A DNA stretch of 64,000 bases from Vicingaceae bacterium (lineage in GTDB: Bacteria; Bacteroidota; Bacteroidia; Flavobacteriales_E; Vicingaceae): contig BPHE01000009.1 of assembly GCA_026003395.1 (NCBI GenBank), positions 5,528 to 69,527 of the forward strand, given 5' to 3'. The notes below the pieces were generated by a model. It was not told where the DNA came from and searched no databases. It saw nothing but the letters and a program-made list of their open reading frames with translations. Below, one piece after another: positions 4,075-33,293 of the stretch (positions within the stretch are counted from its first letter, which is position 1; each line of letters opens with the position of its first letter). Both the position numbers and the translations under genes were made by a program.

Positions 4075-4104
4075 CTTAAATTTTTTTGGGGTAAAGATAA
4101 AACT

Positions 4105-8213: not shown

Positions 8214-8216
8214 TAT

Positions 8217-10115: not shown

Positions 10116-10191
10116 TTTGACATTTTCCAAGATAAGTTAATAAAGATATACGCAGTTTGAAAAAATAGGTAACCCGGAGTATAAACAATTA

Positions 10192-10854: not shown

Positions 10855-10871
10855 GTTATTATATCCTTACA

Positions 10872-10911
10872 ATTAAAAGCAAAAACCAATGGGTAGTCCA
10901 TTGGTTTTTGC
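10872..10911 (-). terminator. intrinsic terminator-like hairpin after the DksA-like gene
   Basis: Perfect 14-bp stem gcaaaaaccaatgg / ccattggtttttgc (10879-10892 / 10898-10911), 5-nt loop, followed on the minus strand by a U-run. Confidence 0.5.
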
Positions 10912-10928
10912 CAGCTATTTGACCATGA

Positions 10929-14800: not shown

Positions 14801-15345
14801 TAGGGTTGAATGGTATATCCCTTATACAATAGGTTTTTTTCATAGAGCATTTTGAGTAGATGCCAAACCGATTCGATGTATTTATTTTCGTAGGTAATGT
14901 ATGGATTTTTCATATCTACCCAGTAGCCCATCTTTTCGGTCAAATCGTTCCAATGGGCTGTGTATTTCATAACAGCTTTGCGGCATGCTTCGTTGTATTC
15001 TTTGATGCTTATTTTTTTGCCAATGTCTTCTTTGGTGATGCCAAGCTCTTTTTCCACACCAAGTTCCACAGGCAAACCATGAGTGTCCCAACCCGCTTTT
15101 CTTTCAACATAATAGCCCTGCAGAGTTTTATACCGGCAAAAAATATCTTTGATGGTTCTGGCCATAACGTGGTGAATACCGGGCATTCCGTTGGCTGATG
15201 GCGGACCTTCGTAGAAAATAAACTTTTGTTTGCCCTTGCGGTTTTCTACACTTTTCTCAAATATTTTATTTTTTTGCCAGAAATCCAGTATCTTTTCGGC
15301 AAAGGCGGGTAAATCAAGTTGGTTGTATTCTTCAAAAATTTTCAT
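11845..15345 (-). CDS. ileS: isoleucine--tRNA ligase (long, type-2 form)
   Basis: 1166 aa. HIGH-type motif (PSANGMPGIHHVMAR), KMSKS (QKMSKRLGN), editing-domain-sized insertion. Confidence 0.95.
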   Translation of the reverse strand: MKIFEEYNQLDLPAFAEKILDFWQKNKIFEKSVENRKGKQKFIFYEGPPSANGMPGIHHVMARTIKDIFCRYKTLQGYYVERKAGWDTHGLPVELGVEKELGITKEDIGKKISIKEYNEACRKAVMKYTAHWNDLTEKMGYWVDMKNPYITYENKYIESVWHLLKMLYEKNLLYKGYTIQPYSPAAGTGLSSHELNQPGCYRNVKDLSATALFQLTAESEEKLKQALSVSSELPVYIAAWTTTPWTLPSNTALAVNPDIEYVLVKTFNPYTSQPQLIVLGKDILSRYFKPEQEALPWEDYKPGDKKVPYRILAVFKGKLLVENQLRYHQLLPYVLPYKDADKAFRIIPGDFVTTDEGTGIVHIAPTFGADDMKVAREAGVPPMLVLDENDRPVPLVDLRGRFRPEVNDPVFGLAGEPVKEAYLTPEERKAAIEKQREQLKSIISDTSKLDYLSVDDRIVIKLQMEGKLLKKEKYEHNYPHCWRTDKPVIYYPLDSWFIKVTAIKDRLVELNKTIYWKPESTGIGRFGNWLENANDWNLSRSRFWGIPLPVWKSEDGETKCIGSFAELKKECEKSVAAGIMKSNPLASFNENDLSDENYHKFDIHRPFVDEIILVSSNGLPMYRETDLIDVWFDSGAMPYAQWHWPFNKKVNLEEIMPADFIAEGVDQTRGWFYTLHVIATACFDSVAYKTVVSNGLVLDKHGQKMSKRLGNAIDPFETLKKFGPDATRWYMITNAQPWENLKFDPDGIVETQRKFFRAFFNTYSFFALYANIDHYRAEEAQVPVKERPELDRWILSKLNSLIKNVKENLDDYEPTRAARSIETFVVDHLSNWYVRLSRRRFWKGEYNQDKISAYQTLHTCLVTLAQLSSPFAPFFSDFIYRNLTQNIKGNYPPSVHLTDFPNSDDLMIDLHLEEKMDLAQIISGLVLSLRKKQNIRVRQPLQKMMIPVLNSAQKEMIKEVEHIILSEVNVKEIEYLDANQSIIVKKVKPDFKKLGPILGPLMKSVTQKLLDLTQEEINSLEKNQKIDLVIEGQNITLTTDELEIIPQDIPGWLVAHDKGITVALDIRITDQLKYEGLAREFINRIQNLRKELGFEVTDKIIIEIEKNDIIEKVVELHKDYICSETLAEDIIFTGKMQQNLSNIVDLEEFQIHVKLFKSKYHGEKSN

Positions 15346-15452
15346 CTGTCTTTTTTTAGACCGGCAAAGGTAATTTAAAAAATTTATCTCGTCCTAATTT
15401 TTAAAATGATTTGATTAAGTGAAAGTTATCATTTACAAAAGTTTTTGTGGTG

Positions 15453-18400
15453 TTAAGGGGTTATTTCTTTTTTTTCAACGTCTTTCCAAATATAAGCAAA
15501 TTTGGGGTCAATGACTATCTTGTCGGGTTTTTTGGGGCATATTAATTTGATAGAAGCGTGATTGTTTTGAATCATGATGGTTGATGAAGCTAAGGGTTCA
15601 CCATACATTTTTCCCTTTTTTTTCTCATAAGCGGTTATGGTGACCGGACCGGTTGCAACAAGACGTTCGGATTTTCCCAAGTCGGTGTTTTTGATGTTTT
15701 CTGTTAAAGAAATGTTTGTCAGATAAGAACTCTTGAAAAATTCTATGTTTAAATTAATTTCCCAGGTAGAATCAGCCTGGGGTTTGGCTTCTTTACTTTT
15801 GACGTCAAGGTCCCAAATGATAATTTTTTCGAGATGTTCTTGCACAAAAGGTTTGAGGGAATCGGGGCAAAGGTCATACAATCGTTTGGAGAACTCAAGA
15901 GAAGTGGGGTATGGTGGTTCTTGATAAGCAAATTTCTTGATTAATTGTTGCAATACATTGAACATTATTGCAGAACCTGTTTGATGTTGAATGGCATTGA
16001 GAGCCACGGCTGCTTTGTCATAATAAACATACGATTGTTGGTCTGTGGTCAATAAAGTCGGTTCTCTTTTGGTTTCATAAGCGCGTGAAGTGATATAATT
16101 ACGATTGGACCGACGCAAAAATTTCAGCAACATATCTTCACCAAATACTTTGGCAATGACATTGGAAGCCGAGAATTCGGCAAGTGATTCGGAAAGGAAA
16201 GGGGCTCCTTGCATTTTTGCTCCTACTACCTGGTGAGCCCACCATTGGTGAGCCATTTCGTGAGCAACCACATGAAAAATTCTATTGATGTCTTCTTGAT
16301 TGTCTTTGTAGTTTGATGTAAAACCGATACTTTCTGAATAGGGCATAGTGCCCGGAAATGCCTGTGCGAATGAAGAAAATTGTGGGAATTCAATGATACG
16401 GGCTTCATTGTGATAATATTTTCCGAGATGGTTGACGTAATAAGAGATGGAAGCTTTCAGGGCATCCATCATTTGAGGAACATTCCATTCATGGCCGGGG
16501 TGGTAGTAAATGGCCAGTTCAATATCATTTAAACGCTCTTTTTTAACAGCATACCTTGCGGACATTACATTAAAGAAGAACAAAGACGGTTGGTCAAGGC
16601 GGTATTCAAAATATGCCCGGTTTTTTGTGGTCCATCTTTTCACAAGCTTGCCGGGCGCAATGGCCATTTGGTCAGCGTAAGTGGAGATGACAAAATGCAT
16701 TTTGGCCCAGTCCGATTGTGTAACATAATTCCACATGCATTTTTGGGTGCAGTTTGTTTCCAAGGGAGGTAAATAAAATTGCTTTATTGACAATCCTTGT
16801 TTTTTTCTTTCGGTATTTTCTGCAATTTCATAACTTTCGTCATAACCAAAAGCCGGAGTAAACATACTGTAGTTTAAGAATGTGCCGTTTGGCATCAGGT
16901 ATGGATTAGAAAGTTCGTTTTCGATGCTCTCATAGATTTCTTTATAGCTATATTCAAACAACATACTGTCTCCTGGCATAAGTGGTTGTTTTAAACGGTA
17001 AATTTCAAATGAAACCAATTTTGAAGTGTCTTTGTGTATTAATGTTAAATTGTTGTTGATGATTTCAAACGGATGTTTCACAGGATTATTGATATACAAC
17101 TCCTCGATAGGTTCATTGAATTTATTTTTGAGATATAGCTTTGCTTTGACGAAATATTTTCTTTCTTTCCCAAACAGGTCAATGGCATAATCGGCATATA
17201 CAATTTTGGGCTGGGGTTTATCTTTATATTTTTGATAGTTTTTTTCATAAAAGGCACGCCAATATATTTCATCATCATAAGAAAGAAAACGATTTCTGAT
17301 ATTAACATGATAATGTAAAAATCCTGCATATCCGGTTACAATAATCAATGCGGTGGTGGGGAAAAGTTTGTATTGAGCAAAATGGTTCTTGATTATAAAA
17401 AGTTTGTCAAGGAAGGATATGTTTTTGTAACCTTCAAATATGACGATAGTGACATAAAATACAAAAGCATAAATCAGCATCCAATAAAACCAAAATGAAA
17501 TATATTGTGTCAAATAAGGACCATAGCCATAAAAATCGGAATAAATGATGTCCGGAAAAGTGGGTAAGATGCCGGCCATATTGGATTTGATGTGCAGGGA
17601 AGCTTTCAATACTGGTTGAAACGTAAGAATTAAAATCACTATTCCCATGGAAATGAACTTTTGCCCGGTCAATGCATGTAAGAAAAAAGACAAAATGATT
17701 AACGCAATGAAATCGGTGAATTTAAAAAAGAAAATTTCCGTAAAATATATTGAAAATTCAATAGGAGCTTCTCCTTTGAAAGTTTGATACAGGATACCGA
17801 ACAATAAAAAGAAAATACCGCAGAATATATAAAGCAACATCAATGAAAACAATTTGCCGGTAAGGATAACCGCAGGAGACACCGGCAAAGAATATTTGAT
17901 TTCGGAAAAGAAACTTGTTTTTTCACGCCAAAAGATTTCGGCCGACAAGTAGATAAAAAACAATTTTAAAATGAAAAAAACAAAGAAAATTATTTTCAGC
18001 GTGTAATAAGTTGTGGCATATCTTGGGGCTTCATCATCCTGAATCATTCCGATGAAATACATAAGATACATCAGAAAAATAATTCCGGTCATGAATATCA
18101 AAACATTGCTGCGCAGCATGTATTTTAGACCCAAAGAGGCCTCATTGGCCACTGCAGATAACATCCATGAAAATCCTCCGGTTATTTTTGAAAATCGAAT
18201 GGATTTATATTGAACTTGAATAAAAGACCGTATGGTTTTGCCGGAATCATTGCTGTCTGCTGTTTTTTTCGGAAGATTCCATCTGATTCTCTGTTTATAT
18301 ACGGCCATAAAAAATAAACCAATGCCCAATCCGCACCAAACAATCCTGTTAATTATAAATCTGGCGGTAGGCACGATCAAATAATGATTCATTTCATAAG

Positions 18401-19079
18401 CGGTCTGTTTATTCAGCAGTTCAAATAATGGAATCAATCCAAATGGGTCGGCAATGTCAATGAAAGAATGATCAATTAAATTATCGGACAACTGCAAAAA
18501 TGAAAAATAAAATGCCAGCATTCCGACGGCAATCAAGATGGAGTATTTGATATTTTTCAAAAAAGAGCCAAAGAAAAATAATATGCAACCGATGGCGATC
18601 AAGCTGGGCAAGACAATGATGGTCATACACCACAAATGATGGGTGAGATTAAAAGGGAGTAAAGAATCTTCGGAAGTCCAAGGAACCAAATGGGCCAAAA
18701 TATCTGCCAAGGGAATCGAGGCAAAAATCATTATGACCGGTAGGAATGCTCCCAAAAACCTTCCGCTAAAAAGCACAAATTTTGATACAGGATAGGTATA
18801 GATGATTTCATGAAACTTATATTCGTAGTCACGGGCCAGTGAAAATGCAATAAATTCATTTAAAATCAAAGGCAGGAATAATGAGATAAGAATGTAGAGG
18901 TTTGTCAATGAATAAGGGGCATTTTTGTATACAACTTCTGTTACATTGCCAATTCGAATGGTTTCTATGCTGAAAATCAACAATGCAAAGAGCATGATAA
19001 CAGAAAAATAAACATATACAGATGGTTTTTTAAACCAATACTTCCATTCGAAAGGTAATATGGAAACAATTTGTTTCAT
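15453..19079 (-). CDS. ABC-2-type transporter permease fused to M1-family zinc peptidase domain
   Basis: 1208 aa. The N-terminal ~600 aa is polytopic membrane. The C-terminal part has HEMAHQWW (about 16240-16263 on the plus strand) and a downstream LSESLAEF glutamate. Immediately downstream of the ABC ATPase gene. Confidence 0.85.
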   Translation of the reverse strand: MKQIVSILPFEWKYWFKKPSVYVYFSVIMLFALLIFSIETIRIGNVTEVVYKNAPYSLTNLYILISLFLPLILNEFIAFSLARDYEYKFHEIIYTYPVSKFVLFSGRFLGAFLPVIMIFASIPLADILAHLVPWTSEDSLLPFNLTHHLWCMTIIVLPSLIAIGCILFFFGSFLKNIKYSILIAVGMLAFYFSFLQLSDNLIDHSFIDIADPFGLIPLFELLNKQTAYEMNHYLIVPTARFIINRIVWCGLGIGLFFMAVYKQRIRWNLPKKTADSNDSGKTIRSFIQVQYKSIRFSKITGGFSWMLSAVANEASLGLKYMLRSNVLIFMTGIIFLMYLMYFIGMIQDDEAPRYATTYYTLKIIFFVFFILKLFFIYLSAEIFWREKTSFFSEIKYSLPVSPAVILTGKLFSLMLLYIFCGIFFLLFGILYQTFKGEAPIEFSIYFTEIFFFKFTDFIALIILSFFLHALTGQKFISMGIVILILTFQPVLKASLHIKSNMAGILPTFPDIIYSDFYGYGPYLTQYISFWFYWMLIYAFVFYVTIVIFEGYKNISFLDKLFIIKNHFAQYKLFPTTALIIVTGYAGFLHYHVNIRNRFLSYDDEIYWRAFYEKNYQKYKDKPQPKIVYADYAIDLFGKERKYFVKAKLYLKNKFNEPIEELYINNPVKHPFEIINNNLTLIHKDTSKLVSFEIYRLKQPLMPGDSMLFEYSYKEIYESIENELSNPYLMPNGTFLNYSMFTPAFGYDESYEIAENTERKKQGLSIKQFYLPPLETNCTQKCMWNYVTQSDWAKMHFVISTYADQMAIAPGKLVKRWTTKNRAYFEYRLDQPSLFFFNVMSARYAVKKERLNDIELAIYYHPGHEWNVPQMMDALKASISYYVNHLGKYYHNEARIIEFPQFSSFAQAFPGTMPYSESIGFTSNYKDNQEDINRIFHVVAHEMAHQWWAHQVVGAKMQGAPFLSESLAEFSASNVIAKVFGEDMLLKFLRRSNRNYITSRAYETKREPTLLTTDQQSYVYYDKAAVALNAIQHQTGSAIMFNVLQQLIKKFAYQEPPYPTSLEFSKRLYDLCPDSLKPFVQEHLEKIIIWDLDVKSKEAKPQADSTWEINLNIEFFKSSYLTNISLTENIKNTDLGKSERLVATGPVTITAYEKKKGKMYGEPLASSTIMIQNNHASIKLICPKKPDKIVIDPKFAYIWKDVEKKEITP

Positions 19080-19085
19080 CGTATT

Positions 19086-19952
19086 TTATTCATTTACATT
19101 ACACATATAGAAAAAAACATCTTCCAAATCGGGCTGTTTCGGCTTAAAATCTTTGCCGGGAAAATCTTCGGAAAAAATACTGATAAAATGTTGCCCGTAT
19201 TTTAGCTTATAAGACAGTATGTTGTATTGTTCAGACAAAGATTGAATTTCCGAACTTTCCACTTGTTTTTCGTAAACTTTGTTTTCTATTAACTTTAAGG
19301 CATCTGCCGGAGAACCTTCAAATTTTACCCGGCCTTTGTGCAAAACTGCCATTTTGTTGCATAAATCCGAAATATCCTGGACGATATGGGTCGAAAATAA
19401 AACTATCCTTTCTTTAGCCACATCAGCCAGAATGTTTTGAAAACGGTTTCTTTCGGTTGGGTCTAAGCCGGCAGTAGGTTCGTCAACAATCAATATTTTT
19501 GGGTCGCCCATTAATGCTTGTGCAATGCCAAACCGTTGACGCATACCTCCGGAAAAATCATACACATATCTGTTGCGATGTTCATACAAATTTACCATAT
19601 GCAACAACTGCCCGGCGATTTCCCTTCTTTTGTTTACAATTCCTTTCAAAACGGCAATGTGTGTAAGGAGTTCGATAGCAGTAGTTTTAGGATAAACACC
19701 AAATTCTTGTGGTAGATATCCGAGAATCGATTTGATTTTCCATGGTTTGTCGGTAACATTCTCGTCGTTCAAATATATTTCACCGCTGTCCGGGGCAATA
19801 AGTGTGCTTAAAATCCTCATCAATGTAGATTTTCCGGCACCATTGGGACCTAAAAGTCCAAACATTCCCGTGGTGAGTGTCAGCGAAACATTGTCTAATG
19901 CTTTTAAATTGTTTTGATAAGTTTTGCTGATTTGTTTAATTTCCAATTTCAT
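19086..19952 (-). CDS. ABC transporter ATP-binding protein
   Basis: Walker A GPNGAGKST, signature FSGGMRQR, Walker B ILIVDEPTAGLD. Confidence 0.9.
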   Translation of the reverse strand: MKLEIKQISKTYQNNLKALDNVSLTLTTGMFGLLGPNGAGKSTLMRILSTLIAPDSGEIYLNDENVTDKPWKIKSILGYLPQEFGVYPKTTAIELLTHIAVLKGIVNKRREIAGQLLHMVNLYEHRNRYVYDFSGGMRQRFGIAQALMGDPKILIVDEPTAGLDPTERNRFQNILADVAKERIVLFSTHIVQDISDLCNKMAVLHKGRVKFEGSPADALKLIENKVYEKQVESSEIQSLSEQYNILSYKLKYGQHFISIFSEDFPGKDFKPKQPDLEDVFFYMCNVNE

Positions 19953-20156
19953 GGGAAAAATTTTTATATTCTATAACATATTTATTTTAAATAGGATACA
20001 TGCCCACATGTAGGGCGCGAAAATAAAAAAAAACAGTTTAAAAACCATGTTTTATGGTTAAATCATAAAAAAAACTTAGATTATGCATTTTTAACAATAC
20101 ATTGGCAGGCAATTCGGATAAATCTAAAATAAATTTTAATAATTTTCGCCCTCAAT

Positions 20157-21218
20157 ATGACAACAGAAGCAACTGATTTCAGGAAAATATTTTCGGGGAA
20201 AAGGATTTTTTTGGCTGTTTTTATCGGTTTGTTGGCATCATCTTATCTTGCGTATGATGGGCTAAGCAAAACTGACTGGAATGGCTATGATTGGTCGGGA
20301 ATGTCGCTATGGTCGTTATTGGTGGCGATATTGTTGATGATATTGCGTGATCTTGCCTATATGCTTAGAATAAGAGTCCTGACAGACGGAAAATTGTCCT
20401 GGAGACAGGCATTTGATGTGGTGATGTTATGGGAATTTGCCTCGTCGCTCACACCCAGCGTGGTGGGAGGATCGGGTTTTGCCATTTTTATCTTAAATCA
20501 GGAAAAAATTCCACTTGGAAAAAGCACGGCAATTGTCATGGTTACTGCTTTTTTGGACGAATTGTTTTATGTCATCATGGTGCCTTTGGTGTTGATTTTC
20601 ACCGGCACGCAAGAGCTTTTCCCTCTTAGTTTGCAAAAACAAATCTTAGGAGTGGAATTTGGCAGCAAGCAATTGTTTTATGTTGGTTATGCGTTTATTT
20701 TGATATTGATAGGTGTGATTTTTTATGGTTTGTTTATTCGTCCGAAAGTCGTAAAATATTGGTTGGTCAAAATTTTTTCATTCAGGTTGCTCAGAAAATG
20801 GAGATATAAAGCACTCGAAACAGCCAATAATTTAATTATTACATCCATAGTATTGAAAGGAAAAAATTTTGGTTTCTGGTTGAAGGCGTTTTTTTATACC
20901 ATTCTTTCATGGTCGGCACGTTTCTGGGTTGTAAACTTTATATTACAGGCCTTCAATCCTTCGTTAAACATAGCCGATCATCTGTTGATTTATGCACGCC
21001 AATTGGTGATGTGGGTCATTTTGTTGATAAGTCCAACTCCCGGCGGAGCCGGAGTTGCCGAGATTTCTTTTTCGGGATTTCTGGAACAATTTACTCCTGA
21101 TGGTTTTGCTGCACTTCAAGCCACTTTATGGAGGGTTTTGAGCTATTATCCGTATATATTGATAGGAAGTATTTTGTTGCCCATCTGGTTAAGACGGGTG
21201 TTGGAACGTAAAAAATAA
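20157..21218 (+). CDS. flippase-like / lysylphosphatidylglycerol-synthase TM-region family membrane protein (UPF0104)
   Basis: 353 aa, about 8 TM segments. Conserved PTPGGAGVAE motif near the C-terminal third. Confidence 0.75.
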   Translation: MTTEATDFRKIFSGKRIFLAVFIGLLASSYLAYDGLSKTDWNGYDWSGMSLWSLLVAILLMILRDLAYMLRIRVLTDGKLSWRQAFDVVMLWEFASSLTPSVVGGSGFAIFILNQEKIPLGKSTAIVMVTAFLDELFYVIMVPLVLIFTGTQELFPLSLQKQILGVEFGSKQLFYVGYAFILILIGVIFYGLFIRPKVVKYWLVKIFSFRLLRKWRYKALETANNLIITSIVLKGKNFGFWLKAFFYTILSWSARFWVVNFILQAFNPSLNIADHLLIYARQLVMWVILLISPTPGGAGVAEISFSGFLEQFTPDGFAALQATLWRVLSYYPYILIGSILLPIWLRRVLERKK

Positions 21219-21247
21219 AAGCCCTTGAAATCAAGGGCTTTTATTGT
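21217..21247. terminator. bidirectional intrinsic terminator-like hairpin
   Basis: aaaagcccttgaaatcaagggctttt between convergent genes. A-run upstream and T-run downstream. Confidence 0.5.
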
Positions 21248-21307
21248 CTTGAGTTTTTTGAAATTTTCAAAAAATCAATATAAGCATGTGTTCGTTTGAG
21301 ACAATTT

Positions 21308-22402
21308 TTAGAAGTATCCACGAATGGTTATCCTGAAATTTCTTCCCGGGGCAGATATTCCCGAGGCAAAATGCCGGTAATTTTGATCAAGTATATTTTC
21401 TAAAGCTAATTGAATTTCGATGATTTTATTCAAATGGTAACCTGCGCGGGCATTGACGGTTATCCAGGCAGGCGTACCCCAAGGGGTGGCTTTGGATAAA
21501 TTGTCTTCACCAAACATGTTATAATCTTTCAAGCGTTTCCATCCGTTATAAATAAAAAAGATTTCACCTTTGAATTTATTTTTGTTGAGTCTAAAAGAGG
21601 TCATTCCGTATACAGGAGGAATATGATCGAGAGGGTAAGGGGTCGAGTCGGTTTTTATCCTTCCGTAAGTATAAGTTAAAGTGCTGCGTATGGAGAAATT
21701 TTCTGTAACATTTGCCTGCATAGAGGCCTGAAGGCCATAAATGAAAGCATTGAGGGCATTCTGGTTTGCCACAATCCGGCTCCAACGCCCGTCATAAAAT
21801 ATGGAATCCTGTCCGTTGAAAGTATAGGGAGCAGTGGTGATAAGATTATCATAATAGGTATAATAGGCGGTAGCTTCAAGGTATGTTTTTTCGATTTCGC
21901 GGCCTATGGTCAAATCTGCTGTGTAGGTATATTCGGGTTTTATGTTCGGGTTGGGCACAATCAAGAGTCCGGGCACCGATTCAAAAACCTTTCCAAGGTC
22001 ATCCACGTTTGGCGATCGAAATCCTGTGTTACCGGTCAAAGCAAATTTCCATTTGCCGGGAAGCCAGGTTACTCCAAGCATGCCACTTGGTGCATGATTT
22101 ACTTGATTTACAACATCAAATGGAAATGGGAAAAAGTTTTTGCTTTTGAATATAGATTTCAATTCAATGTAGTTATAACGGGATCCGGCATGAAGAGTCA
22201 GTATGTCATTGAATTTATAAGCATAATTCAAATAAATGGCAGCACTGTACCAATCGCTTCCTCCATCCGGATAACGGGTGTCCAACGAATCGGTTTCGCC
22301 CGTGATAATTATGTTGGTTGTCGTGGGCTTTAGACCAAACCTTATTGTAAACACCTTCGAGTCCGTAAAAAATTTTGTGTTTCTTGATTTTTTTGCTGAA
22401 AT
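21308..22402 (-). pseudogene. TonB-dependent receptor, C-terminal fragment (duplicate of 26319-27409; no signal peptide or plug)
   Basis: Protein from TGETDSLDTRYPDGG to the C-terminal F is identical to 26319-28724. Upstream of that, an indel patch (22310-22326) shifts the frame, and the gene is cut at the duplication joint. Confidence 0.8.
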
Positions 22403-24090
22403 ATTATAAAAAGTTTGTCAAGGAAGGATATGTTTTTGTAACCTTCAAATATGACGATAGTGACATAAAATACAAAAGCATAAATCAGCATCCAATAAAA
22501 CCAAAATGAAATATATTGTGTCAAATAAGGACCATAGCCATAAAAATCGGAATAAATGATGTCCGGAAAAGTGGGTAAGATGCCGGCCATATTGGATTTG
22601 ATGTGCAGGGAAGCTTTCAATACTGGTTGAAACGTAAGAATTAAAATCACTATTCCCATGGAAATGAACTTTTGCCCGGTCAATGCATGTAAGAAAAAAG
22701 ACAAAATGATTAACGCAATGAAATCGGTGAATTTAAAAAAGAAAATTTCCGTAAAATATATTGAAAATTCAATAGGAGCTTCTCCTTTGAAAGTTTGATA
22801 CAGGATACCGAACAATAAAAAGAAAATACCGCAGAATATATAAAGCAACATCAATGAAAACAATTTGCCGGTAAGGATAACCGCAGGAGACACCGGCAAA
22901 GAATATTTGATTTCGGAAAAGAAACTTGTTTTTTCACGCCAAAAGATTTCGGCCGACAAGTAGATAAAAAACAATTTTAAAATGAAAAAAACAAAGAAAA
23001 TTATTTTCAGCGTGTAATAAGTTGTGGCATATCTTGGGGCTTCATCATCCTGAATCATTCCGATGAAATACATAAGATACATCAGAAAAATAATTCCGGT
23101 CATGAATATCAAAACATTGCTGCGCAGCATGTATTTTAGACCCAAAGAGGCCTCATTGGCCACTGCAGATAACATCCATGAAAATCCTCCGGTTATTTTT
23201 GAAAATCGAATGGATTTATATTGAACTTGAATAAAAGACCGTATGGTTTTGCCGGAATCATTGCTGTCTGCTGTTTTTTTCGGAAGATTCCATCTGATTC
23301 TCTGTTTATATACGGCCATAAAAAATAAACCAATGCCCAATCCGCACCAAACAATCCTGTTAATTATAAATCTGGCGGTAGGCACGATCAAATAATGATT
23401 CATTTCATAAGCGGTCTGTTTATTCAGCAGTTCAAATAATGGAATCAATCCAAATGGGTCGGCAATGTCAATGAAAGAATGATCAATTAAATTATCGGAC
23501 AACTGCAAAAATGAAAAATAAAATGCCAGCATTCCGACGGCAATCAAGATGGAGTATTTGATATTTTTCAAAAAAGAGCCAAAGAAAAATAATATGCAAC
23601 CGATGGCGATCAAGCTGGGCAAGACAATGATGGTCATACACCACAAATGATGGGTGAGATTAAAAGGGAGTAAAGAATCTTCGGAAGTCCAAGGAACCAA
23701 ATGGGCCAAAATATCTGCCAAGGGAATCGAGGCAAAAATCATTATGACCGGTAGGAATGCTCCCAAAAACCTTCCGCTAAAAAGCACAAATTTTGATACA
23801 GGATAGGTATAGATGATTTCATGAAACTTATATTCGTAGTCACGGGCCAGTGAAAATGCAATAAATTCATTTAAAATCAAAGGCAGGAATAATGAGATAA
23901 GAATGTAGAGGTTTGTCAATGAATAAGGGGCATTTTTGTATACAACTTCTGTTACATTGCCAATTCGAATGGTTTCTATGCTGAAAATCAACAATGCAAA
24001 GAGCATGATAACAGAAAAATAAACATATACAGATGGTTTTTTAAACCAATACTTCCATTCGAAAGGTAATATGGAAACAATTTGTTTCAT
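22342..24090 (-). CDS. truncated duplicate of the ABC-2 permease (TM region only, M1 domain lost), chimeric 3' end
   Basis: First 570 aa identical to 15453-19079. After the joint it reads out of frame into the TonB-receptor fragment for 19 codons (FQQKNQETQNFLRTRRCLQ*). Confidence 0.6.
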   Translation of the reverse strand: MKQIVSILPFEWKYWFKKPSVYVYFSVIMLFALLIFSIETIRIGNVTEVVYKNAPYSLTNLYILISLFLPLILNEFIAFSLARDYEYKFHEIIYTYPVSKFVLFSGRFLGAFLPVIMIFASIPLADILAHLVPWTSEDSLLPFNLTHHLWCMTIIVLPSLIAIGCILFFFGSFLKNIKYSILIAVGMLAFYFSFLQLSDNLIDHSFIDIADPFGLIPLFELLNKQTAYEMNHYLIVPTARFIINRIVWCGLGIGLFFMAVYKQRIRWNLPKKTADSNDSGKTIRSFIQVQYKSIRFSKITGGFSWMLSAVANEASLGLKYMLRSNVLIFMTGIIFLMYLMYFIGMIQDDEAPRYATTYYTLKIIFFVFFILKLFFIYLSAEIFWREKTSFFSEIKYSLPVSPAVILTGKLFSLMLLYIFCGIFFLLFGILYQTFKGEAPIEFSIYFTEIFFFKFTDFIALIILSFFLHALTGQKFISMGIVILILTFQPVLKASLHIKSNMAGILPTFPDIIYSDFYGYGPYLTQYISFWFYWMLIYAFVFYVTIVIFEGYKNISFLDKLFIIFQQKNQETQNFLRTRRCLQ

Positions 24091-24096
24091 CGTATT

Positions 24097-24963
24097 TTAT
24101 TCATTTACATTACACATATAGAAAAAAACATCTTCCAAATCGGGCTGTTTCGGCTTAAAATCTTTGCCGGGAAAATCTTCGGAAAAAATACTGATAAAAT
24201 GTTGCCCGTATTTTAGCTTATAAGACAGTATGTTGTATTGTTCAGACAAAGATTGAATTTCCGAACTTTCCACTTGTTTTTCGTAAACTTTGTTTTCTAT
24301 TAACTTTAAGGCATCTGCCGGAGAACCTTCAAATTTTACCCGGCCTTTGTGCAAAACTGCCATTTTGTTGCATAAATCCGAAATATCCTGGACGATATGG
24401 GTCGAAAATAAAACTATCCTTTCTTTAGCCACATCAGCCAGAATGTTTTGAAAACGGTTTCTTTCGGTTGGGTCTAAGCCGGCAGTAGGTTCGTCAACAA
24501 TCAATATTTTTGGGTCGCCCATTAATGCTTGTGCAATGCCAAACCGTTGACGCATACCTCCGGAAAAATCATACACATATCTGTTGCGATGTTCATACAA
24601 ATTTACCATATGCAACAACTGCCCGGCGATTTCCCTTCTTTTGTTTACAATTCCTTTCAAAACGGCAATGTGTGTAAGGAGTTCGATAGCAGTAGTTTTA
24701 GGATAAACACCAAATTCTTGTGGTAGATATCCGAGAATCGATTTGATTTTCCATGGTTTGTCGGTAACATTCTCGTCGTTCAAATATATTTCACCGCTGT
24801 CCGGGGCAATAAGTGTGCTTAAAATCCTCATCAATGTAGATTTTCCGGCACCATTGGGACCTAAAAGTCCAAACATTCCCGTGGTGAGTGTCAGCGAAAC
24901 ATTGTCTAATGCTTTTAAATTGTTTTGATAAGTTTTGCTGATTTGTTTAATTTCCAATTTCAT
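24097..24963 (-). CDS. ABC transporter ATP-binding protein (duplicate copy)
   Basis: 288 aa, identical to 19086-19952. Confidence 0.85.
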   Translation of the reverse strand: MKLEIKQISKTYQNNLKALDNVSLTLTTGMFGLLGPNGAGKSTLMRILSTLIAPDSGEIYLNDENVTDKPWKIKSILGYLPQEFGVYPKTTAIELLTHIAVLKGIVNKRREIAGQLLHMVNLYEHRNRYVYDFSGGMRQRFGIAQALMGDPKILIVDEPTAGLDPTERNRFQNILADVAKERIVLFSTHIVQDISDLCNKMAVLHKGRVKFEGSPADALKLIENKVYEKQVESSEIQSLSEQYNILSYKLKYGQHFISIFSEDFPGKDFKPKQPDLEDVFFYMCNVNE

Positions 24964-25167
24964 GGGAAAAATTTTTATATTCTATAACATATTTATTTTA
25001 AATAGGATACATGCCCACATGTAGGGCGCGAAAATAAAAAAAAACAGTTTAAAAACCATGTTTTATGGTTAAATCATAAAAAAAACTTAGATTATGCATT
25101 TTTAACAATACATTGGCAGGCAATTCGGATAAATCTAAAATAAATTTTAATAATTTTCGCCCTCAAT

Positions 25168-26229
25168 ATGACAACAGAAGCAACTGATTTCAGGAAAATA
25201 TTTTCGGGGAAAAGGATATTTTTGGCTGTTTTTATCGGTTTGTTGGCATCATCTTATCTTGCGTATGATGGGCTAAGCAAAACTGACTGGAATGGCTATG
25301 ATTGGTCGGGAATGTCGCTATGGTCGTTATTGGTGGCGATATTGTTGATGATATTGCGTGATCTTGCCTATATGCTTAGAATAAGAGTCCTGACAGACGG
25401 AAAATTGTCCTGGAGACAGGCATTTGATGTGGTGATGTTATGGGAATTTGCCTCGTCGCTCACACCCAGCGTGGTGGGAGGATCGGGTTTTGCCATTTTT
25501 ATCTTAAATCAGGAAAAAATTCCACTTGGAAAAAGCACGGCAATTGTCATGGTTACGGCTTTTCTAGATGAATTGTTTTATGTCATCATGGTGCCTTTGG
25601 TGTTGATTTTCACCGGCACGCAAGAGCTTTTCCCTCTTAGTTTGCAAAAACAAATCTTAGGAGTGGAATTTGGCAGCAAGCAATTGTTTTATGTTGGTTA
25701 TGCGTTTATTTTGATATTGATAGGTGTGATTTTTTATGGTTTGTTTATTCGTCCGAAAGTCGTAAAATATTGGTTGGTCAAAATTTTTTCATTCAGGTTG
25801 CTCAGAAAATGGAGATATAAAGCACTCGAAACAGCCAATAATTTAATTATTACATCCATAGTATTGAAAGGAAAAAATTTTGGTTTCTGGTTGAAGGCGT
25901 TTTTTTATACCATTCTTTCATGGTCGGCACGTTTCTGGGTTGTAAACTTTATATTACAGGCCTTCAATCCTTCGTTAAACATAGCCGATCATCTGTTGAT
26001 TTATGCACGCCAATTGGTGATGTGGGTCATTTTGTTGATAAGTCCAACTCCCGGCGGAGCCGGAGTTGCCGAGATTTCTTTTTCGGGATTTCTGGAACAA
26101 TTTACTCCTGATGGTTTTGCTGCACTTCAAGCCACTTTATGGAGGGTTTTGAGCTATTATCCGTATATATTGATAGGAAGTATTTTGTTGCCCATCTGGT
26201 TAAGACGGGTGTTGGAACGTAAAAAATAA
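25168..26229 (+). CDS. flippase-like / UPF0104 membrane protein (duplicate copy)
   Basis: 353 aa, identical to 20157-21218. Five synonymous nucleotide differences. Confidence 0.75.
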   Translation: MTTEATDFRKIFSGKRIFLAVFIGLLASSYLAYDGLSKTDWNGYDWSGMSLWSLLVAILLMILRDLAYMLRIRVLTDGKLSWRQAFDVVMLWEFASSLTPSVVGGSGFAIFILNQEKIPLGKSTAIVMVTAFLDELFYVIMVPLVLIFTGTQELFPLSLQKQILGVEFGSKQLFYVGYAFILILIGVIFYGLFIRPKVVKYWLVKIFSFRLLRKWRYKALETANNLIITSIVLKGKNFGFWLKAFFYTILSWSARFWVVNFILQAFNPSLNIADHLLIYARQLVMWVILLISPTPGGAGVAEISFSGFLEQFTPDGFAALQATLWRVLSYYPYILIGSILLPIWLRRVLERKK

Positions 26230-26258
26230 AAGCCCTTGAAATCAAGGGCTTTTATTGT
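26228..26258. terminator. bidirectional terminator-like hairpin (duplicate)
   Basis: Same hairpin as 21217-21247. Confidence 0.5.
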
Positions 26259-26318
26259 CTTGAGTTTTTTGAAATTTTCAAAAAATCAATATAAGCATGT
26301 GTTCGTTTGAGACAATTT

Positions 26319-28724
26319 TTAGAAGTATCCACGAATGGTTATCCTGAAATTTCTTCCCGGGGCAGATATTCCCGAGGCAAAATGCCGGTAATTTTGATCA
26401 AGTATATTTTCTAAAGCTAATTGAATTTCGATGATTTTATTCAAATGGTAACCTGCGCGGGCATTGACGGTTATCCAGGCAGGCGTACCCCAAGGGGTGG
26501 CTTTGGATAAATTGTCTTCACCAAACATGTTATAATCTTTCAAGCGTTTCCATCCGTTATAAATAAAAAAGATTTCACCTTTGAATTTATTTTTGTTGAG
26601 TCTAAAAGAGGTCATTCCGTATACAGGAGGAATATGATCGAGAGGGTAAGGGGTCGAGTCGGTTTTTATCCTTCCGTAAGTATAAGTTAAAGTGCTGCGT
26701 ATGGAGAAATTTTCTGTAACATTTGCCTGCATAGAGGCCTGAAGGCCATAAATGAAAGCATTGAGGGCATTCTGGTTTGCCACAATCCGGCTCCAACGCC
26801 CGTCATAAAATATGGAATCCTGTCCGTTGAAAGTATAGGGAGCAGTGGTGATAAGATTATCATAATAGGTATAATAGGCGGTAGCTTCAAGGTATGTTTT
26901 TTCGATTTCGCGGCCTATGGTCAAATCTGCTGTGTAGGTATATTCGGGTTTTATGTTCGGGTTGGGCACAATCAAGAGTCCGGGCACCGATTCAAAAACC
27001 TTTCCAAGGTCATCCACGTTTGGCGATCGAAATCCTGTGTTACCGGTCAAAGCAAATTTCCATTTGCCGGGAAGCCAGGTTACTCCAAGCATGCCACTTG
27101 GTGCATGATTTACTTGATTTACAACATCAAATGGAAATGGGAAAAAGTTTTTGCTTTTGAATATAGATTTCAATTCAATGTAGTTATAACGGGATCCGGC
27201 ATGAAGAGTCAGTATGTCATTGAATTTATAAGCATAATTCAAATAAATGGCAGCACTGTACCAATCGCTTCCTCCATCGGGATAACGGGTATCCAATGAA
27301 TCGGTTTCGCCCGTGATAATATTGGTTGTATGAGCTTTAGACCAAACCTTATTGTAAACACCTTCGAGTCCGTAAAAAATTTTGTGTTTCTTGATTTTTT
27401 TGCTGAAATCTGCATTTAGCGCATAAACTTCAACATTTTCAATTCTGCTCTGAAGTTTAAGATTGTTTAAACGTCTTGTGTGACGGCTTTCTTCTATGTT
27501 TTGAAACGAAGTGGTAAGGGTGGCTTTATCCCACCATTTACCTTGTGTGTGTTCCAATTTATAGTATGTTAAGAGGCGTTTTTGCGGCCCATAATACCAT
27601 TCTGCATATCTGGGTAATCCTCCGGATGTTTGTTGCAGACGGTCGTATCTTGGGATGTTGCTTGATGTGGAATATTGGAAATTAAAGGTATGAGTGATGT
27701 TTGCGCTTTGTTTCCACATAATTTTTTGAAGCAGGTCATATTGTTTGTATCCGGACCCAACCTGTAGGTTTGGATTATTGTTTACAAAAACCGAATCTTT
27801 TCCTTCAATGGTTTTAACGTAAAAATTCCTGTACCAATCGGTGCCTAATGCATAGTTTCGATTGTTTCCTTGCATCAGGTCTCCAAAATCGGAATAAGTG
27901 AAGGAGGAAATCCAACCAAATTTATTGTTGGCAATCGAAAAGTCAATATGCCCGGTTTTCTCCTCGTTGGCGGTTGAATACCTGGTATAAGCACTTCCTT
28001 TGGTAATCCATTTTGAATCATTGGAAAATACTGGGTTTTTGGTTTGAAAAACCATCACTCCCCCCAACGCATCGCTTCCATATATTACCGATCCCGGGCC
28101 AAAGATTACTTCTGCCGATTGAAGCATGTTCGGATCAATCGTGATGACATTTTGTAAATGGCCTGAACGGTAAATGGCATTGTTCATTCTGATACCATCA
28201 ATCACCAACAACACACGGCTGGCTTCAAAACCTCTCAAAACGGGGCTGCCTCCGCCTTGTTGGGATTTCTGCACAAATACATCTCCGGTGTAGATTAACA
28301 TATCGGCCGTTGTTTGCGGGTTGTAAAAATTTATTTCTTCAGCTTCGATTTTTCTTATTTTTAAAGGGGACTCTTTTAAAGTTAGGGAATCGCGTTTGGG
28401 CGATATGACAAATGCTTCAAGATTGTAAACCTTTTCGTTTAACAAGATTTTAAAATTATTTTTCTCCAAATCTTCGTATGATACTGTAGCGGTAAAATAA
28501 GACAAATGTTTAATTTTGATTTGATCGCCTTTTTTCAGGCCAGTTAAGGTTATTTTACCTTTGTTGTCGGTGCTTCCTTGTAATACTTCATTAACATACA
28601 CATAAGCACCTGCCACAGGTTGCAGCGTGGCATTGTCCAATACGTTTATTTCTTGCCCAAAAGAGAATCCGGCAATAAAAACAAAAATACAAAACAATAT
28701 ATGGTTAAAATTTAATTTTTTCAT
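26319..28724 (-). CDS. TonB-dependent receptor with N-terminal carboxypeptidase-regulatory-like domain
   Basis: 801 aa. Signal peptide. Plug motifs (GGGSPVLRGFEASRVLLVIDGIRMNNA, GSDALGGVMVF). C-terminal aromatic residue (RGYF). Confidence 0.9.
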   Translation of the reverse strand: MKKLNFNHILFCIFVFIAGFSFGQEINVLDNATLQPVAGAYVYVNEVLQGSTDNKGKITLTGLKKGDQIKIKHLSYFTATVSYEDLEKNNFKILLNEKVYNLEAFVISPKRDSLTLKESPLKIRKIEAEEINFYNPQTTADMLIYTGDVFVQKSQQGGGSPVLRGFEASRVLLVIDGIRMNNAIYRSGHLQNVITIDPNMLQSAEVIFGPGSVIYGSDALGGVMVFQTKNPVFSNDSKWITKGSAYTRYSTANEEKTGHIDFSIANNKFGWISSFTYSDFGDLMQGNNRNYALGTDWYRNFYVKTIEGKDSVFVNNNPNLQVGSGYKQYDLLQKIMWKQSANITHTFNFQYSTSSNIPRYDRLQQTSGGLPRYAEWYYGPQKRLLTYYKLEHTQGKWWDKATLTTSFQNIEESRHTRRLNNLKLQSRIENVEVYALNADFSKKIKKHKIFYGLEGVYNKVWSKAHTTNIITGETDSLDTRYPDGGSDWYSAAIYLNYAYKFNDILTLHAGSRYNYIELKSIFKSKNFFPFPFDVVNQVNHAPSGMLGVTWLPGKWKFALTGNTGFRSPNVDDLGKVFESVPGLLIVPNPNIKPEYTYTADLTIGREIEKTYLEATAYYTYYDNLITTAPYTFNGQDSIFYDGRWSRIVANQNALNAFIYGLQASMQANVTENFSIRSTLTYTYGRIKTDSTPYPLDHIPPVYGMTSFRLNKNKFKGEIFFIYNGWKRLKDYNMFGEDNLSKATPWGTPAWITVNARAGYHLNKIIEIQLALENILDQNYRHFASGISAPGRNFRITIRGYF

Positions 28725-28937
28725 AACTGATGATTTTAGAAATTACGAATAGAAATGAAAATTATGACCATAATAATCATAAGATCATCGGCCTTTAGAG
28801 ACGTTAGCATTGATCTGTCATGTTAAATCTCCGGCGGGGGTGAAAGGAGTTGCAATTGTATGGATTGATAAAATGTAGTTAAATACCCAAATGTTATAAG
28901 CATGCTTTTAATATGGAACTGAAAATTTTGTGTAAAA

Positions 28938-29357
28938 TCAGACAACCAAAAAATTTCTGCGAAATTTTTTTGGCGCAACCGGATCAGACGGTAAGGACTG
29001 TTTGGTATCGTGCTGTAAAAGTTTTTTGAAATAATCTGTCAATGCTTTTTCTTTCTTATCCTCCAAACAAACGATTCGTATAAACTTTCCATCCTTGATG
29101 ATTTTGACTACATCATACATTTTACCGTCAAAACGGAATTCTTTGCCTTTTTCCTCCCAGGCAATGCGATTGAATTGATGAATGGAAAATATCAAACTTT
29201 TGGTTTCCCTGTGTGTTTTTCCAAATTTAACGGATTGTTGGAAGTTGTACCGCAGATATTTCCTTTGAATCCATAACAATCCCTCAAATCTCAGGTAGAA
29301 AAACAACAAGGCAGGAATGGAGATGGATAGAAGGAAGTATTTTTTGTATGATATCAT
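28938..29357 (-). CDS. hypothetical membrane-anchored protein
   Basis: ORF with one N-terminal TM segment. The ATG at 29357 is preferred over the TTG at 29375 in the ORF track. Sits 4 nt after the kbl stop. Confidence 0.45.
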   Translation of the reverse strand: MISYKKYFLLSISIPALLFFYLRFEGLLWIQRKYLRYNFQQSVKFGKTHRETKSLIFSIHQFNRIAWEEKGKEFRFDGKMYDVVKIIKDGKFIRIVCLEDKKEKALTDYFKKLLQHDTKQSLPSDPVAPKKFRRNFLVV

Positions 29358-29361
29358 GTTG

Positions 29362-30546
29362 CTAAATGACACCAAGTTTTTTCCCTACTTTTTCAAAGGC
29401 GGCTATGGCTTTGTCAAGATGTTCGGTTTCGTGGGCAGCAGAAAGTTGTACTCTGATGCGTGCTTGTCCTTTTGGTACAACCGGGTAGAAAAATCCAATC
29501 ACGTAGATTCCTTCCTCCAATAAAGCATTAGCAAAATCTTGCGATAGTTTGGCATCGTAGACCATAATAGGTACAATGGCACTTTCGCCATCTTTGATGT
29601 CAAATCCCAGCGATCTAATCTTCTCTTTGAAATATTTTACGTTTCTTTCGAGTTTGTCACGTAGATGGGTTGTTTTCGAAAGCATGTCGAAAACGGCGAT
29701 TGAAGCTCCAACGATGTGAGGTGCCAAAGAGTTTGAGAAAAGATATGGCCTCGAACGTTGACGCAGCATTTCAATGATTTCCTTTCGTCCTGTGGTAAAA
29801 CCGCCCATGGCACCCCCAAGCGCTTTACCCAATGTGCCTGTGATAATATCGACGCGCCCCATGACATTTTTCAACTCGATGGTGCCACGTCCTGTAGGGC
29901 CTATAAAACCCGTAGCATGGCTTTCGTCAACCATTACAAGGGCATTGTACTTTTCGGCCAGGTCGCAAATTTTATCCAACGGAGCAACAAATCCGTCCAT
30001 AGAAAACACCCCGTCGGTGACAATGATTCTAAAACGGGCATCGGATGCTTCTTTCAATTTTGCTTCAAGGTCGTCCATGTCGCAATTTTTGTAGCGGTAT
30101 CGACGGGCTTTACATAATCTCACACCATCGATAATGGAGGCATGGTTTAATTCATCCGAAATTATTGCGTCTTGTTCGTTGAAAAGTGGTTCGAACACCC
30201 CCCCATTGGCATCAAAACAGGCAGCATATAAAATAGTGTCTTCGGTGCCTAAAAATTCTGCTATTTTACGCTCAAGTTCTTTGTGTATGTCTTGTGTACC
30301 GCAAATAAACCGGACACTGCTCATACCGTACCCACGGGAATCTAATGTGCGGTGGGCCGCTGCAATTACTTCAGGATGTGACGAAAGACCCAAATAATTG
30401 TTTGAGCAGAAGTTTAATACTTTCTTTCCTCCCACAATGATCTCAGCCCCTTGTTCCGATTCGATGATCCGCTCTTTTTTGAATAAACCCGATGCTTCAA
30501 TGGATTTCAGTTCGTTTTCCAAATATTGCTTAAAATTTCCGTACAT
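29362..30546 (-). CDS. kbl: glycine C-acetyltransferase (2-amino-3-ketobutyrate CoA ligase)
   Basis: 394 aa, collinear with E. coli Kbl as I recall it ([48 protein letters not shown]). Confidence 0.92.
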
Positions 30547-30614
30547 TCCTTTTTGTTTTTGGATATTTGCGTCAAATTTAAAAATATATTTGAATAACCG
30601 ACGTTCTGATACCT

Positions 30615-32374: not shown

Positions 32375-32404
32375 GAAAGCATGTAATCAATTACATGCTT
32401 TCTT
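32373..32404. terminator. terminator-like perfect hairpin between convergent genes
   Basis: 14-bp stem aagaaagcatgtaa / ttacatgctttctt with loop tcaa. Confidence 0.5.
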
Positions 32405-32470
32405 AAAGAAACTATTGCAACAAAATTATTTTATTGTTCCAATTTTTTGTTGATTTTTTCCAAGCGTTGC

Positions 32471-33079: not shown

Positions 33080-33293
33080 AACAATTTGATTTTAAATTAT
33101 TTTACAAGGATATAAAAAAACTTTTAAATAAAAAAATTTAAAATTTTACACACCATATTTATTTTGTAAAAATTCAAATAATACAATGCTTGAGGAAGAG
33201 GAGATTTTTTATGAGGGAGAATTTTTTTGCCCGGCAGTTCTTCACGTCTTTTACTACCTTTCGCGGTCATGCTCCCATATCTTGAAGAGGCCA

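Follow-up and report, generated by a model that had tools for sequence, protein, structure and literature searches.

The window, i.e., the whole 64,000-nucleotide stretch analysed (contig BPHE01000009.1, Vicingaceae bacterium), carries two near-identical, directly repeated copies of a 5-kb unit. Each copy includes genes for an ABC transporter ATPase and a flippase-like membrane protein, and is bounded by parts of two larger genes.

Organization of the duplicated unit

The unit and the genes in and around it are as follows:
17392-22402: copy 1 of the unit, 5011 nt, with alleles differing from those of the close relative L039 (see below)
22403-27409: copy 2 of the unit, 5007 nt, agreeing with L039 in 14 of the 15 alignment columns that distinguish the two copies
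15453-19079, minus strand: intact permease-M1 gene, encoding a membrane protein of 1208 aa with a fused M1 peptidase domain
19086-19952, minus strand: ABC transporter ATPase copy 1, 288 aa
20157-21218, plus strand: flippase-like membrane protein copy 1, 353 aa (Pfam LPG_synthase_TM, TIGR00374)
21214-21245: palindromic terminator-like hairpin, 32 nt, between convergent genes (26225-26256 in copy 2)
21308-22402, minus strand: 3' fragment of the receptor gene (801 codons) beginning near codon 439, predicted pseudogene
22342-24090, minus strand: chimeric ORF, permease codons 1-563 followed by 19 out-of-frame codons from the receptor fragment and a stop
24097-24963, minus strand: ABC transporter ATPase copy 2, with the same protein sequence as copy 1
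25168-26229, plus strand: flippase-like membrane protein copy 2, with the same protein sequence as copy 1
26319-28724, minus strand: intact TonB-dependent receptor, 801 aa, with CarboxypepD_reg-like, Plug and beta-barrel domains

Self-BLAST of the window returned the unit as a single alignment of 5011 columns with 99.721% identity, confirming the head-to-tail duplication of the original prediction. The copies are direct and adjacent, and no spacer separates them. The predicted offset of 5011 over ~4.9 kb holds from 17392 to ~22307, beyond which it drops to 5007 because copy 1 carries 4 extra bases. One correction to the earlier description is that the copies are not identical in DNA, the alignment containing 10 mismatches and 4 gap columns. 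The divergent intergenic region and the terminator-like hairpin are both found in each copy, as had been noticed. Apart from the unit, self-BLAST detected no repeats in the window other than collagen-like arrays at about 50-52 kb and a 36-nt palindrome at 32371-32406.

The permease-M1 and receptor genes each occur in one intact and one truncated version. The left parental breakpoint follows codon 563 of the permease-M1 gene, whose intact product has ~12 predicted TM segments (aa 20-547) and an M1 domain (aa 871-1054) with the HEMAH motif at 940. The chimeric ORF retains all ~12 predicted membrane segments and has lost the M1 peptidase domain. The match between the two permease versions, earlier put at 570 aa, is indeed N-terminal; its extent is 563 aa, followed by the 19 out-of-frame codons. 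The right parental breakpoint (27409|27410) lies inside the receptor gene. The top NCBIfam matches of the intact receptor are heme/hemoglobin-type receptor subfamilies, with scores below their cut-offs. The receptor fragment corresponds to approximately the last 330 aa of the intact protein, in agreement with the earlier estimate; it lacks a start codon, a signal peptide and a plug domain, and a +1 frameshift is present at 22322. This promoterless 3' fragment is a predicted pseudogene.

Protein comparison also bore out the identity of the ATPase and 353-aa pairs. As judged from the reading frames, there are two copies of the ABC ATPase and flippase-like genes, each with the common divergent promoter region, in keeping with the proposed doubling of the dosage of both genes. 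What that proposal left out is a predicted second ATPase-permease operon, in which the permease lacks the M1 domain and retains the predicted membrane domain in full (563 aa, followed by a tail of 19 aa).

The novel joint and the single-copy relative

Two further features mark the ends of the unit:
22402-22403: novel joint, at which the equivalent of receptor position 27409 is fused to the equivalent of permease position 17392
17386-17394, plus strand: 9-mer TTCTTGATT spanning the left breakpoint, with a twin at 27388-27396

A three-way comparison of the boundaries revealed that the joint is blunt, without filler bases, and that both parental boundary sequences are kept at the outer edges of the duplication. 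The sequence following 27409 is CTGCATTTAGC, while ATTATAAAAAG follows 22402. Microhomology amounts to 0 nt, since the boundary bases mismatch (G at 17391 versus T at 22402; C at 27410 versus A at 22403). Neither Ns nor a gap occur at the joint, and the sequence continues normally on either side. A search of the outer boundaries for flanking direct repeats of at least ~35 bp found none; the best local alignments between the outer flanks and the unit ends are one of 13 nt, which is a chance match, and a gapped one of 26 nt. The 9-nt identity had been placed near both breakpoints, and its coordinates are right; the crossover (27409|17392), however, lies 13 nt past the right-hand 9-mer. Sharing a 9-mer within 25 nt on either side of two random positions has a chance probability of ~0.018, and in L039 the left-hand 9-mer reads TTTTTGATT. 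On the grounds of the 13-nt displacement and this chance probability, we rejected the 9-mer as the recombination point.

The tandem arrangement might also be the product of the insertion or replication of a mobile or excisable element, such as a composite transposon, an integrative element or a 5-kb circle sharing chromosomal sequence, since, as a matter of topology, a circular form of the unit gives the same head-to-tail joint. Pfam and NCBIfam scans detected no transposase, integrase or replication domain in any ORF of the unit, and no transposase or integrase domain among the ORFs scanned around it. Searches of the window revealed neither tRNA genes nor Rfam RNA matches, and neither terminal inverted repeats nor direct-repeat flanks, the only inverted repeats being the terminator hairpin and weak chance pairs. 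These scans uphold the initial impression that transposase, integrase, tRNA and inverted-repeat ends are missing. Moreover, the unit ends cut ordinary chromosomal genes that are intact in L039. Gene content and the lack of tRNA genes and terminal repeats led us to discard a mobile element, which is scarcely credible here.

The synteny check suggested earlier was performed on one close relative, the metagenome contig FWPU01001329.1 (L039), which is colinear with the window and ~96-97% identical to it. In this single relative, on which the single-copy comparison rests, the permease-M1, ATPase, flippase-like and receptor genes occur once each at full length, with 95-99% protein identity. Because L039 has the same genes once each, the duplication appears, by sequence comparison, to be specific to the window sequence. 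The proposed anatomy, i.e., a simple internal duplication with one novel joint and flanking genes intact once and truncated once, is correct and is backed by this relative.

Among species-representative genomes, the top match of the 353-aa protein is only 58% identical and comes from a Vicingaceae MAG. The neighbourhood of the 353-aa gene is not conserved in this set, a receptor homologue adjoining it in L025 only. A homologue search with the chimeric ORF gave one match at 25% identity, indicating that close relatives are absent from the protein collection. Neither the chimeric ORF nor the 353-aa protein nor the ATPase has a record by exact look-up, and a 40-mer spanning the joint is absent from viral_contigs. 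By exact look-ups, homologue search and 40-mer search, no independent assembly with the same joint was found. The relatives recovered are without exception uncultured MAGs or metagenome contigs.

Differences between the copies

The copies differ at an isolated synonymous site (20207/25218) and in two patches:
20546-20558, plus strand: variant patch 1, four synonymous differences in 13 nt (25557-25569 in copy 2)
22268-22326, minus strand: variant patch 2, six synonymous substitutions, an extra in-frame Ile codon and an extra base causing a frameshift, the extras being counted relative to copy 2 and L039

Inter-copy differences are confined to these sites. All lie within the right-hand 2.1 kb of copy 1, the left 2.8 kb being identical between the copies, and patch 2, the most divergent, stops 76 nt before the joint. 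Codon-wise, 11 of 11 substitutions are synonymous (P ~2e-7 if random), accompanied by one in-frame extra codon and one frameshift. For instance, the 353-aa gene pair has five synonymous DNA differences and encodes identical proteins. The sole frame-breaking difference (+1 at 22322) falls in the predicted receptor pseudogene. Because all substitutions are synonymous, the extra codon is in-frame and the frameshift is in the truncated receptor fragment, we interpret the differences, from their pattern in the sequence, as alleles shaped by selection rather than sequencing errors or fresh mutations.

Sequencing error was dismissed as their source on account of the synonymous nature of all substitutions and the comparison with L039. 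Twelve single-base indels separate the two sequences over 21 kb, of which nine are intergenic and three are at the extreme 3' ends of ORFs; none is a frameshifting indel inside a gene, which makes a consensus error an unlikely origin for the +1 at 22322. A paralogue as source, by gene conversion, was likewise rejected, as the window contains no ectopic donor for either variant patch with up to 4 mismatches allowed. Divergence from L039 is strongly mosaic, ranging from 0 to 34 differences per 200 nt, which would fit a recombining population, with differences between close sequences introduced as synonymous patches already filtered by selection. The description of the duplication as very recent is consequently too simple, as patchy, purely synonymous allelic differences are a pattern that mutation after duplication does not give. 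The pattern would instead imply either later recombination with other strains or the presence of two strain haplotypes in the assembly.

A single event might account for both the joint and the variants, if the duplication occurred in one step as the cell took up DNA of another strain. Homologous recombination within the unit would involve a donor fragment whose end corresponds to 27409, and its free end would then be joined illegitimately to position 17392 of a sister chromosome, making copy 1 a resident/donor chimera from its formation. The allelic type of the differences and their restriction to the right-hand 2.1 kb of copy 1, up to 76 nt from the joint, next to an identical left 2.8 kb, are consistent with such an origin. 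A few bases of microhomology are usual at joints formed by homology-facilitated illegitimate recombination. The joint described here has none, the frameshift in the patch requires a separate event, no sequence feature demands the scheme, and the literature search yielded only general papers on homology-facilitated illegitimate recombination. We regard one-step uptake as very unlikely.

Tandem duplication or assembly artefact

The original prediction offered two alternatives, a real amplification and an assembly artefact. They are still the right pair, and sequence alone cannot separate them. The best explanation, to which we assign a probability of about 0.5, is a real, lineage-specific tandem duplication formed by illegitimate joining, the copies of which were later differentiated by recombination with other strains. 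We read the duplication as carried by at least part of the sequenced population. Illegitimate, RecA-independent joining between sister chromosomes would have linked a point within the receptor gene (after 27409) to one within the permease-M1 gene (at 17392). The two short allelic patches would then have come in through homologous recombination with related strains, and one frameshift may later have accumulated in the dead receptor fragment. Since the copies are identical over ~4.9 kb apart from the sites described above, the event would be young relative to the 3-4% divergence within the species, and nonetheless old enough for recombination patches to arrive.

Bacterial tandem duplications with short or no homology at the junction arise spontaneously and are unstable. 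The present repeat should be readily lost via RecA-dependent recombination between the copies, unless the extra dosage is selected for. The exact head-to-tail geometry, the single-copy state of L039, the gap-free joint, the location of the frameshift in a predicted pseudogene, the lack of frameshifting indels within genes over the 21 kb compared with L039 and the mosaic divergence from L039 support a real duplication and leave it an even proposition. Several observations weigh against it. Changes are synonymous and clustered even in the receptor fragment, where no constraint is expected once duplication has occurred; a real duplication thus needs extra recombination events to explain a pattern that a mixture of two haplotypes predicts directly. 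The most divergent patch ends just 76 nt from the joint, and 0 nt of microhomology is the outcome expected when two sequence ends are concatenated. In addition, an unstable 5-kb repeat with 99.7% identity must have outlasted at least one recombination event, and the joint is known from no independent assembly.

These observations bring in the heterotype false duplication, in which two co-occurring strain haplotypes of a single-copy locus are laid in tandem by the assembly. Copy 1 would be a contig or haplotig end, or a terminal overlap, copy 2 the next start, the 5-kb overlap would have been left untrimmed, and the joint would exist in no cell. Ko et al. 2022 (PMC9516828) report haplotype divergence as the main cause of false duplications, especially at homozygous/heterozygous boundaries, and describe a gap or read-depth gap as usual between the false copies. 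The differences look like two natural alleles, with 11/11 synonymous substitutions, an in-frame codon, two patches and nothing in the left 2.8 kb, and patch 2, the most divergent, comes within 76 nt of the joint, which recalls such boundaries. The blunt joint, devoid of microhomology and of a flanking repeat, and the single-copy state of the sole close relative agree with this origin, and the uncultured nature of all relatives suggests that the window, too, probably derives from a mixed population.

The spacing of 76 nt also corresponds to k-1 at the widely used assembler setting k = 77, an observation made post hoc that may be a coincidence. We abandoned a de Bruijn-graph origin of the spacing, as no path to the blunt joint could be constructed without reads carrying it. 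In contrast to the usual gap between false copies, no run of N or gap occurs at the joint. We reason that graph-based assemblers join sequences via overlaps, a blunt junction of unrelated gene interiors normally requiring reads that carry it, and that two sequences with 100% identity over 2.8 kb and 99.7% identity across their whole length would normally be collapsed. Furthermore, either the strain that supplied copy 1 would have a frameshifted receptor, or the frameshift would itself be a consensus error, and then the sole one seen in >21 kb. On balance, we regard the false duplication as somewhat less probable than a real duplication.

Either way, the event is of a known, ordinary kind and would not surprise a specialist. 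The locus resembles spontaneous tandem segmental duplications of bacteria in its direct copies, its one joint within unrelated genes and its intact parental boundaries; no IS or rRNA repeats flank it, the enclosed genes are doubled, and the genes at the joint are truncated or fused. Copies in such duplications are identical or randomly diverged, whereas clustered synonymous allelic patches and 0-nt microhomology are seen here. Duplications flanked by IS, rRNA or REP sequences have the same outcome, a tandem duplication; they arise by homologous recombination and are classified as R-D-R-D-R structures in the 'Tandem' preprint (10.64898/2026.05.22.727201), while no flanking repeat is present here. 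Heterotype false duplications (PMC9516828) share with the locus adjacent near-identical copies, variants of haplotype type only and a boundary beside a locally divergent stretch. They were described in diploid vertebrate assemblies, whereas the source here would be a mixed bacterial population, and their copies are usually separated by a gap, which is not visible at this joint.

If the locus is an artefact, strain mixtures can yield gap-free false tandem duplications in prokaryotic assemblies, which inflate gene counts and create false truncated genes. If it is a real duplication, it would be a further natural, non-homologous tandem duplication caught before collapse, in an uncultured Bacteroidota-like lineage, and a small, concrete case of the beginning of a gene-dosage change and of a domain fission separating permease from M1 peptidase. 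It is unlikely that the duplication is both real and kept by selection, as an early stage of an operon duplication with domain fission whose copies became distinct by inter-strain recombination or by a one-step origin from incoming DNA. Were this so, a stand-alone 12-TM permease would have arisen from the fused permease-M1 gene and would be expressed together with an ATPase copy of its own.

Layout of the duplicated unit

Self-comparison of the window revealed one long direct repeat, in which 17392-22402 (copy 1) recurs as 22403-27409 (copy 2) with 99.721% identity over 5011 columns, including 10 mismatches and 4 gap columns; the tandem repeat described in the original prediction is thereby confirmed. 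The offset between the copies is 5011 until about 22307 and 5007 thereafter, owing to four additional bases in copy 1. The ORF map, which agrees with the gene layout predicted earlier, contains the following features in and around the unit.

11845-15345, minus strand: IleRS, left of the unit
15453-19079, minus strand: intact 1208-aa membrane protein with an M1 peptidase domain (permease-M1)
19086-19952, minus strand: ABC ATPase, copy 1
20157-21218, plus strand: flippase-like LPG_synthase_TM protein, copy 1
21214-21245: 32-nt palindromic hairpin, copy 1
21308-22402, minus strand: TonB-dependent receptor gene, 3' fragment
22402/22403: joint between the copies
22342-24090, minus strand: truncated permease
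24097-24963, minus strand: ABC ATPase, copy 2
25168-26229, plus strand: flippase-like protein, copy 2
26225-26256: hairpin, copy 2
26319-28724, minus strand: intact 801-aa receptor

As predicted, the two ATPases and the two flippase-like proteins are 100% alike. The truncated permease consists of residues 1-563 of the intact protein, followed by 19 out-of-frame codons to a stop. The window contains neither tRNA genes nor Rfam matches, and no transposase or integrase domain was found among the ORFs scanned in or near the unit. Features of the mobile-element class of duplications were looked for and are absent, and a mobile element is a most improbable source of the repeat.

Across the 64 kb, the only other repeats are collagen-like arrays near 50-52 kb and a 36-nt near-perfect palindrome at 32371-32406. 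Two adjacent ORFs (50032-51126 and 51143-53104, both on the plus strand) carry Pfam collagen triple-helix repeats, and their DNA forms 45/90-nt-period arrays at 50386-50718 and 51435-51711. About 500 nt are 92% identical between the two genes, local GC is up to 0.47, and a PKD/CHU_C protein (type IX secretion signal) is encoded upstream, at 48554-49903. The palindrome (94% self-complementary) directly follows a MORN-repeat gene (31124-32374) and is probably a terminator.

A single-copy relative and the structure of the joint

A scan of species-representative genomes found distant relatives only (protein identity at most 58%), in which the neighbourhood is not conserved. A scan of metagenome contigs identified a close relative, FWPU01001329.1 (L039), whose identity to the window is 97.4% on the left side of the locus and 95.9% on the right side. 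L039 is colinear with the window once one unit is taken out: positions 1-12242 align to 10155-22402, and positions 7238-21059 to 22403-36230. In L039, all genes of the unit are full length and occur once each (protein identity: permease-M1 97.9%, ATPase 99.3%, flippase-like protein 98.3%, receptor 95.3%); the single copy is therefore the ancestral state, and the duplication is specific to the window's sequence.

The 12 single-base indels that separate the window from L039 over 21 kb are either intergenic (9) or located at the extreme 3' ends of ORFs (3), and the consensus of the window is therefore not prone to indels. At 35720, the window and L039 differ by a single-base indel. This site marks the boundary of two genes that abut with no spacer, one for a CarboxypepD_reg-domain protein (807 aa, 33294-35717, minus strand) and one for a histidine kinase (987 aa, 35718-38681, minus strand).

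Comparison of both parental boundaries with the joint revealed that right-parental sequence runs to 27409 (…GCTGAAAT) and is directly followed by left-parental sequence from 17392 (ATTATAAAAAG…); after 27409, the right parent itself continues with CTGCATTTAGC. There is no microhomology, as 0 bases at the joint are assignable to either parent (17391 is G and 22402 is T; 27410 is C and 22403 is A). Filler sequence is absent, and so are direct repeats in the flanks: when the outer flanks were aligned locally to the unit ends, the best match was 13 nt long. Classified according to the 'Tandem' preprint (10.64898/2026.05.22.727201), the joint has neither a homologous-recombination signature nor microhomology. 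The closest known kind is the no-homology class of spontaneous bacterial tandem duplications, the anatomical features of which are present here; the defining features of the homologous-recombination and microhomology subclasses are not.

The 9-mer TTCTTGATT, which had been noted on or near both breakpoints, is positioned as described: it spans the left breakpoint, and its right-hand twin ends 13 nt before the right breakpoint. Because of this 13-nt offset, a role of the 9-mer as the crossover in recombination is rejected. For random pairs of positions, the probability that the sequences within ±25 nt contain a common word of 9 nt or longer is about 0.018, and the left-hand 9-mer reads TTTTTGATT in L039.

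Differences between the copies and origin of the repeat

The left 2.8 kb of the unit shows no difference between the copies. Differences are confined to an isolated site, 20207, and two patches.

20546-20558: 13-nt variant patch, in the flippase-like gene
22268-22326: 59-nt variant patch, in the receptor fragment; ends 76 nt before the joint
22300-22326: part of the copy-1 patch, GATAATTATGTTGGTTGTCGTGGGC

The last difference between the copies is located exactly 76 nt from the joint (22326-22402), and a de Bruijn graph at k of 77 or more would link the patch to the joint.

Read codon by codon, all 11 substitutions are synonymous; they exceed the 10 mismatches by an AAT to AAC change hidden in one aligned gap region. 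Ten occur at third codon positions; the eleventh alters the first base of a Leu codon (TTG to CTA). The synonymous share of random changes in these genes is about 21-22%, which gives such a set a P of about 2e-7. The four extra bases of copy 1 represent two events, an in-frame ATT that adds an Ile (…TTNIITGE… to …TTNIIITGE…) and one base at 22322 that causes a frameshift in the truncated receptor copy, which is predicted to be dead. This synonymous and in-frame pattern indicates that the differences are alleles that evolved in functional, in-frame genes, the single frameshift being the sole exception. Apart from the frameshift, it rules out sequencing errors and random post-duplication mutations as their source. 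The original interpretation is supported in part: the observation stands, the 9-mer loses its role, and "very recent" needs qualifying, as the copies differ by clustered synonymous allelic patches.

L039 sides with copy 2 at 14 of the 15 alignment columns at which the copies differ. Its divergence from the window is strongly mosaic: some stretches have 0-2 differences per 200 nt, and the receptor barrel reaches 34 over that length, after which the count drops sharply to zero across the equivalent of 27257-27563. This is the pattern of a recombining population. When receptor region 27000-27600 is compared with L039 11830-12400, some 200 nt with about 17% divergence (27041-27240) give way to about 300 nt that are fully identical (27257-27563), which suggests recombination tracts within the surface-exposed barrel region.

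Allelic variants are also a feature of false duplications, and assembly of two strain haplotypes into an artefactual repeat, to which we give less than even odds, would directly predict purely allelic differences, even in the receptor fragment, where constraint should be lacking. The most divergent patch adjoins the joint, the joint is blunt, and a mixed population is likely because the relatives are all uncultured. A near-perfect 5-kb tandem repeat should, moreover, be unstable. The distance of 76 nt is also k-1 for k = 77, possibly by coincidence. Haplotype divergence is reported to be the main cause of false duplications, above all where homozygous and heterozygous sequence meet, and a gap or read-depth gap is usual in them (Ko et al. 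2022, PMC9516828). However, assemblers based on overlap-joining graphs would not normally fuse the interiors of two genes at a blunt junction unless reads carried it, and would normally collapse two sequences sharing kilobases of identity.

A real tandem duplication, including one present in only part of the population, has a probability of roughly 0.5. It would fit the exact geometry, with no gap and normal sequence either side of the joint, and the position of the frameshift, which lies in the one copy that it would not harm. Where a species recombines heavily, young paralogues would be expected to differ by imported synonymous patches; an origin of the whole arrangement in one step from donor DNA is improbable. 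Under either reading, duplication or artefact, the event is of a well-known kind and at most a new instance.

Predicted consequences for the duplicated genes

For the ATPase/permease-M1 pair and the flippase-like protein, function is known at the family level only. The N-terminal 582 aa of permease-M1 (15453-19079, minus strand) match no Pfam or NCBIfam model, and a search of 5.8 billion proteins gave one hit only at E <= 1e-30 (25% identity); the membrane half appears poorly sampled. The hairpin that separates the convergent genes resembles a terminator on the minus strand. The receptor fragment begins near codon 439 of 801 and is a predicted pseudogene, as it has no signal peptide, plug domain or promoter.

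A real duplication would give each copy its own divergent intergenic region for the ATPase and flippase-like genes, and dosage would double because both genes keep their upstream regions in both copies. In copy 2, the ATPase gene would lie upstream of a permease that has all of the approximately 12 membrane segments predicted from hydropathy (aa 20-547) and no M1 domain. In the intact protein, this C-terminal metallopeptidase domain spans 871-1054, with HEMAH at 940; codon 563, at which the permease is truncated, lies between the two modules. A permease cleanly parted from the M1 peptidase domain to which it is fused would be a modest extra point of the arrangement.
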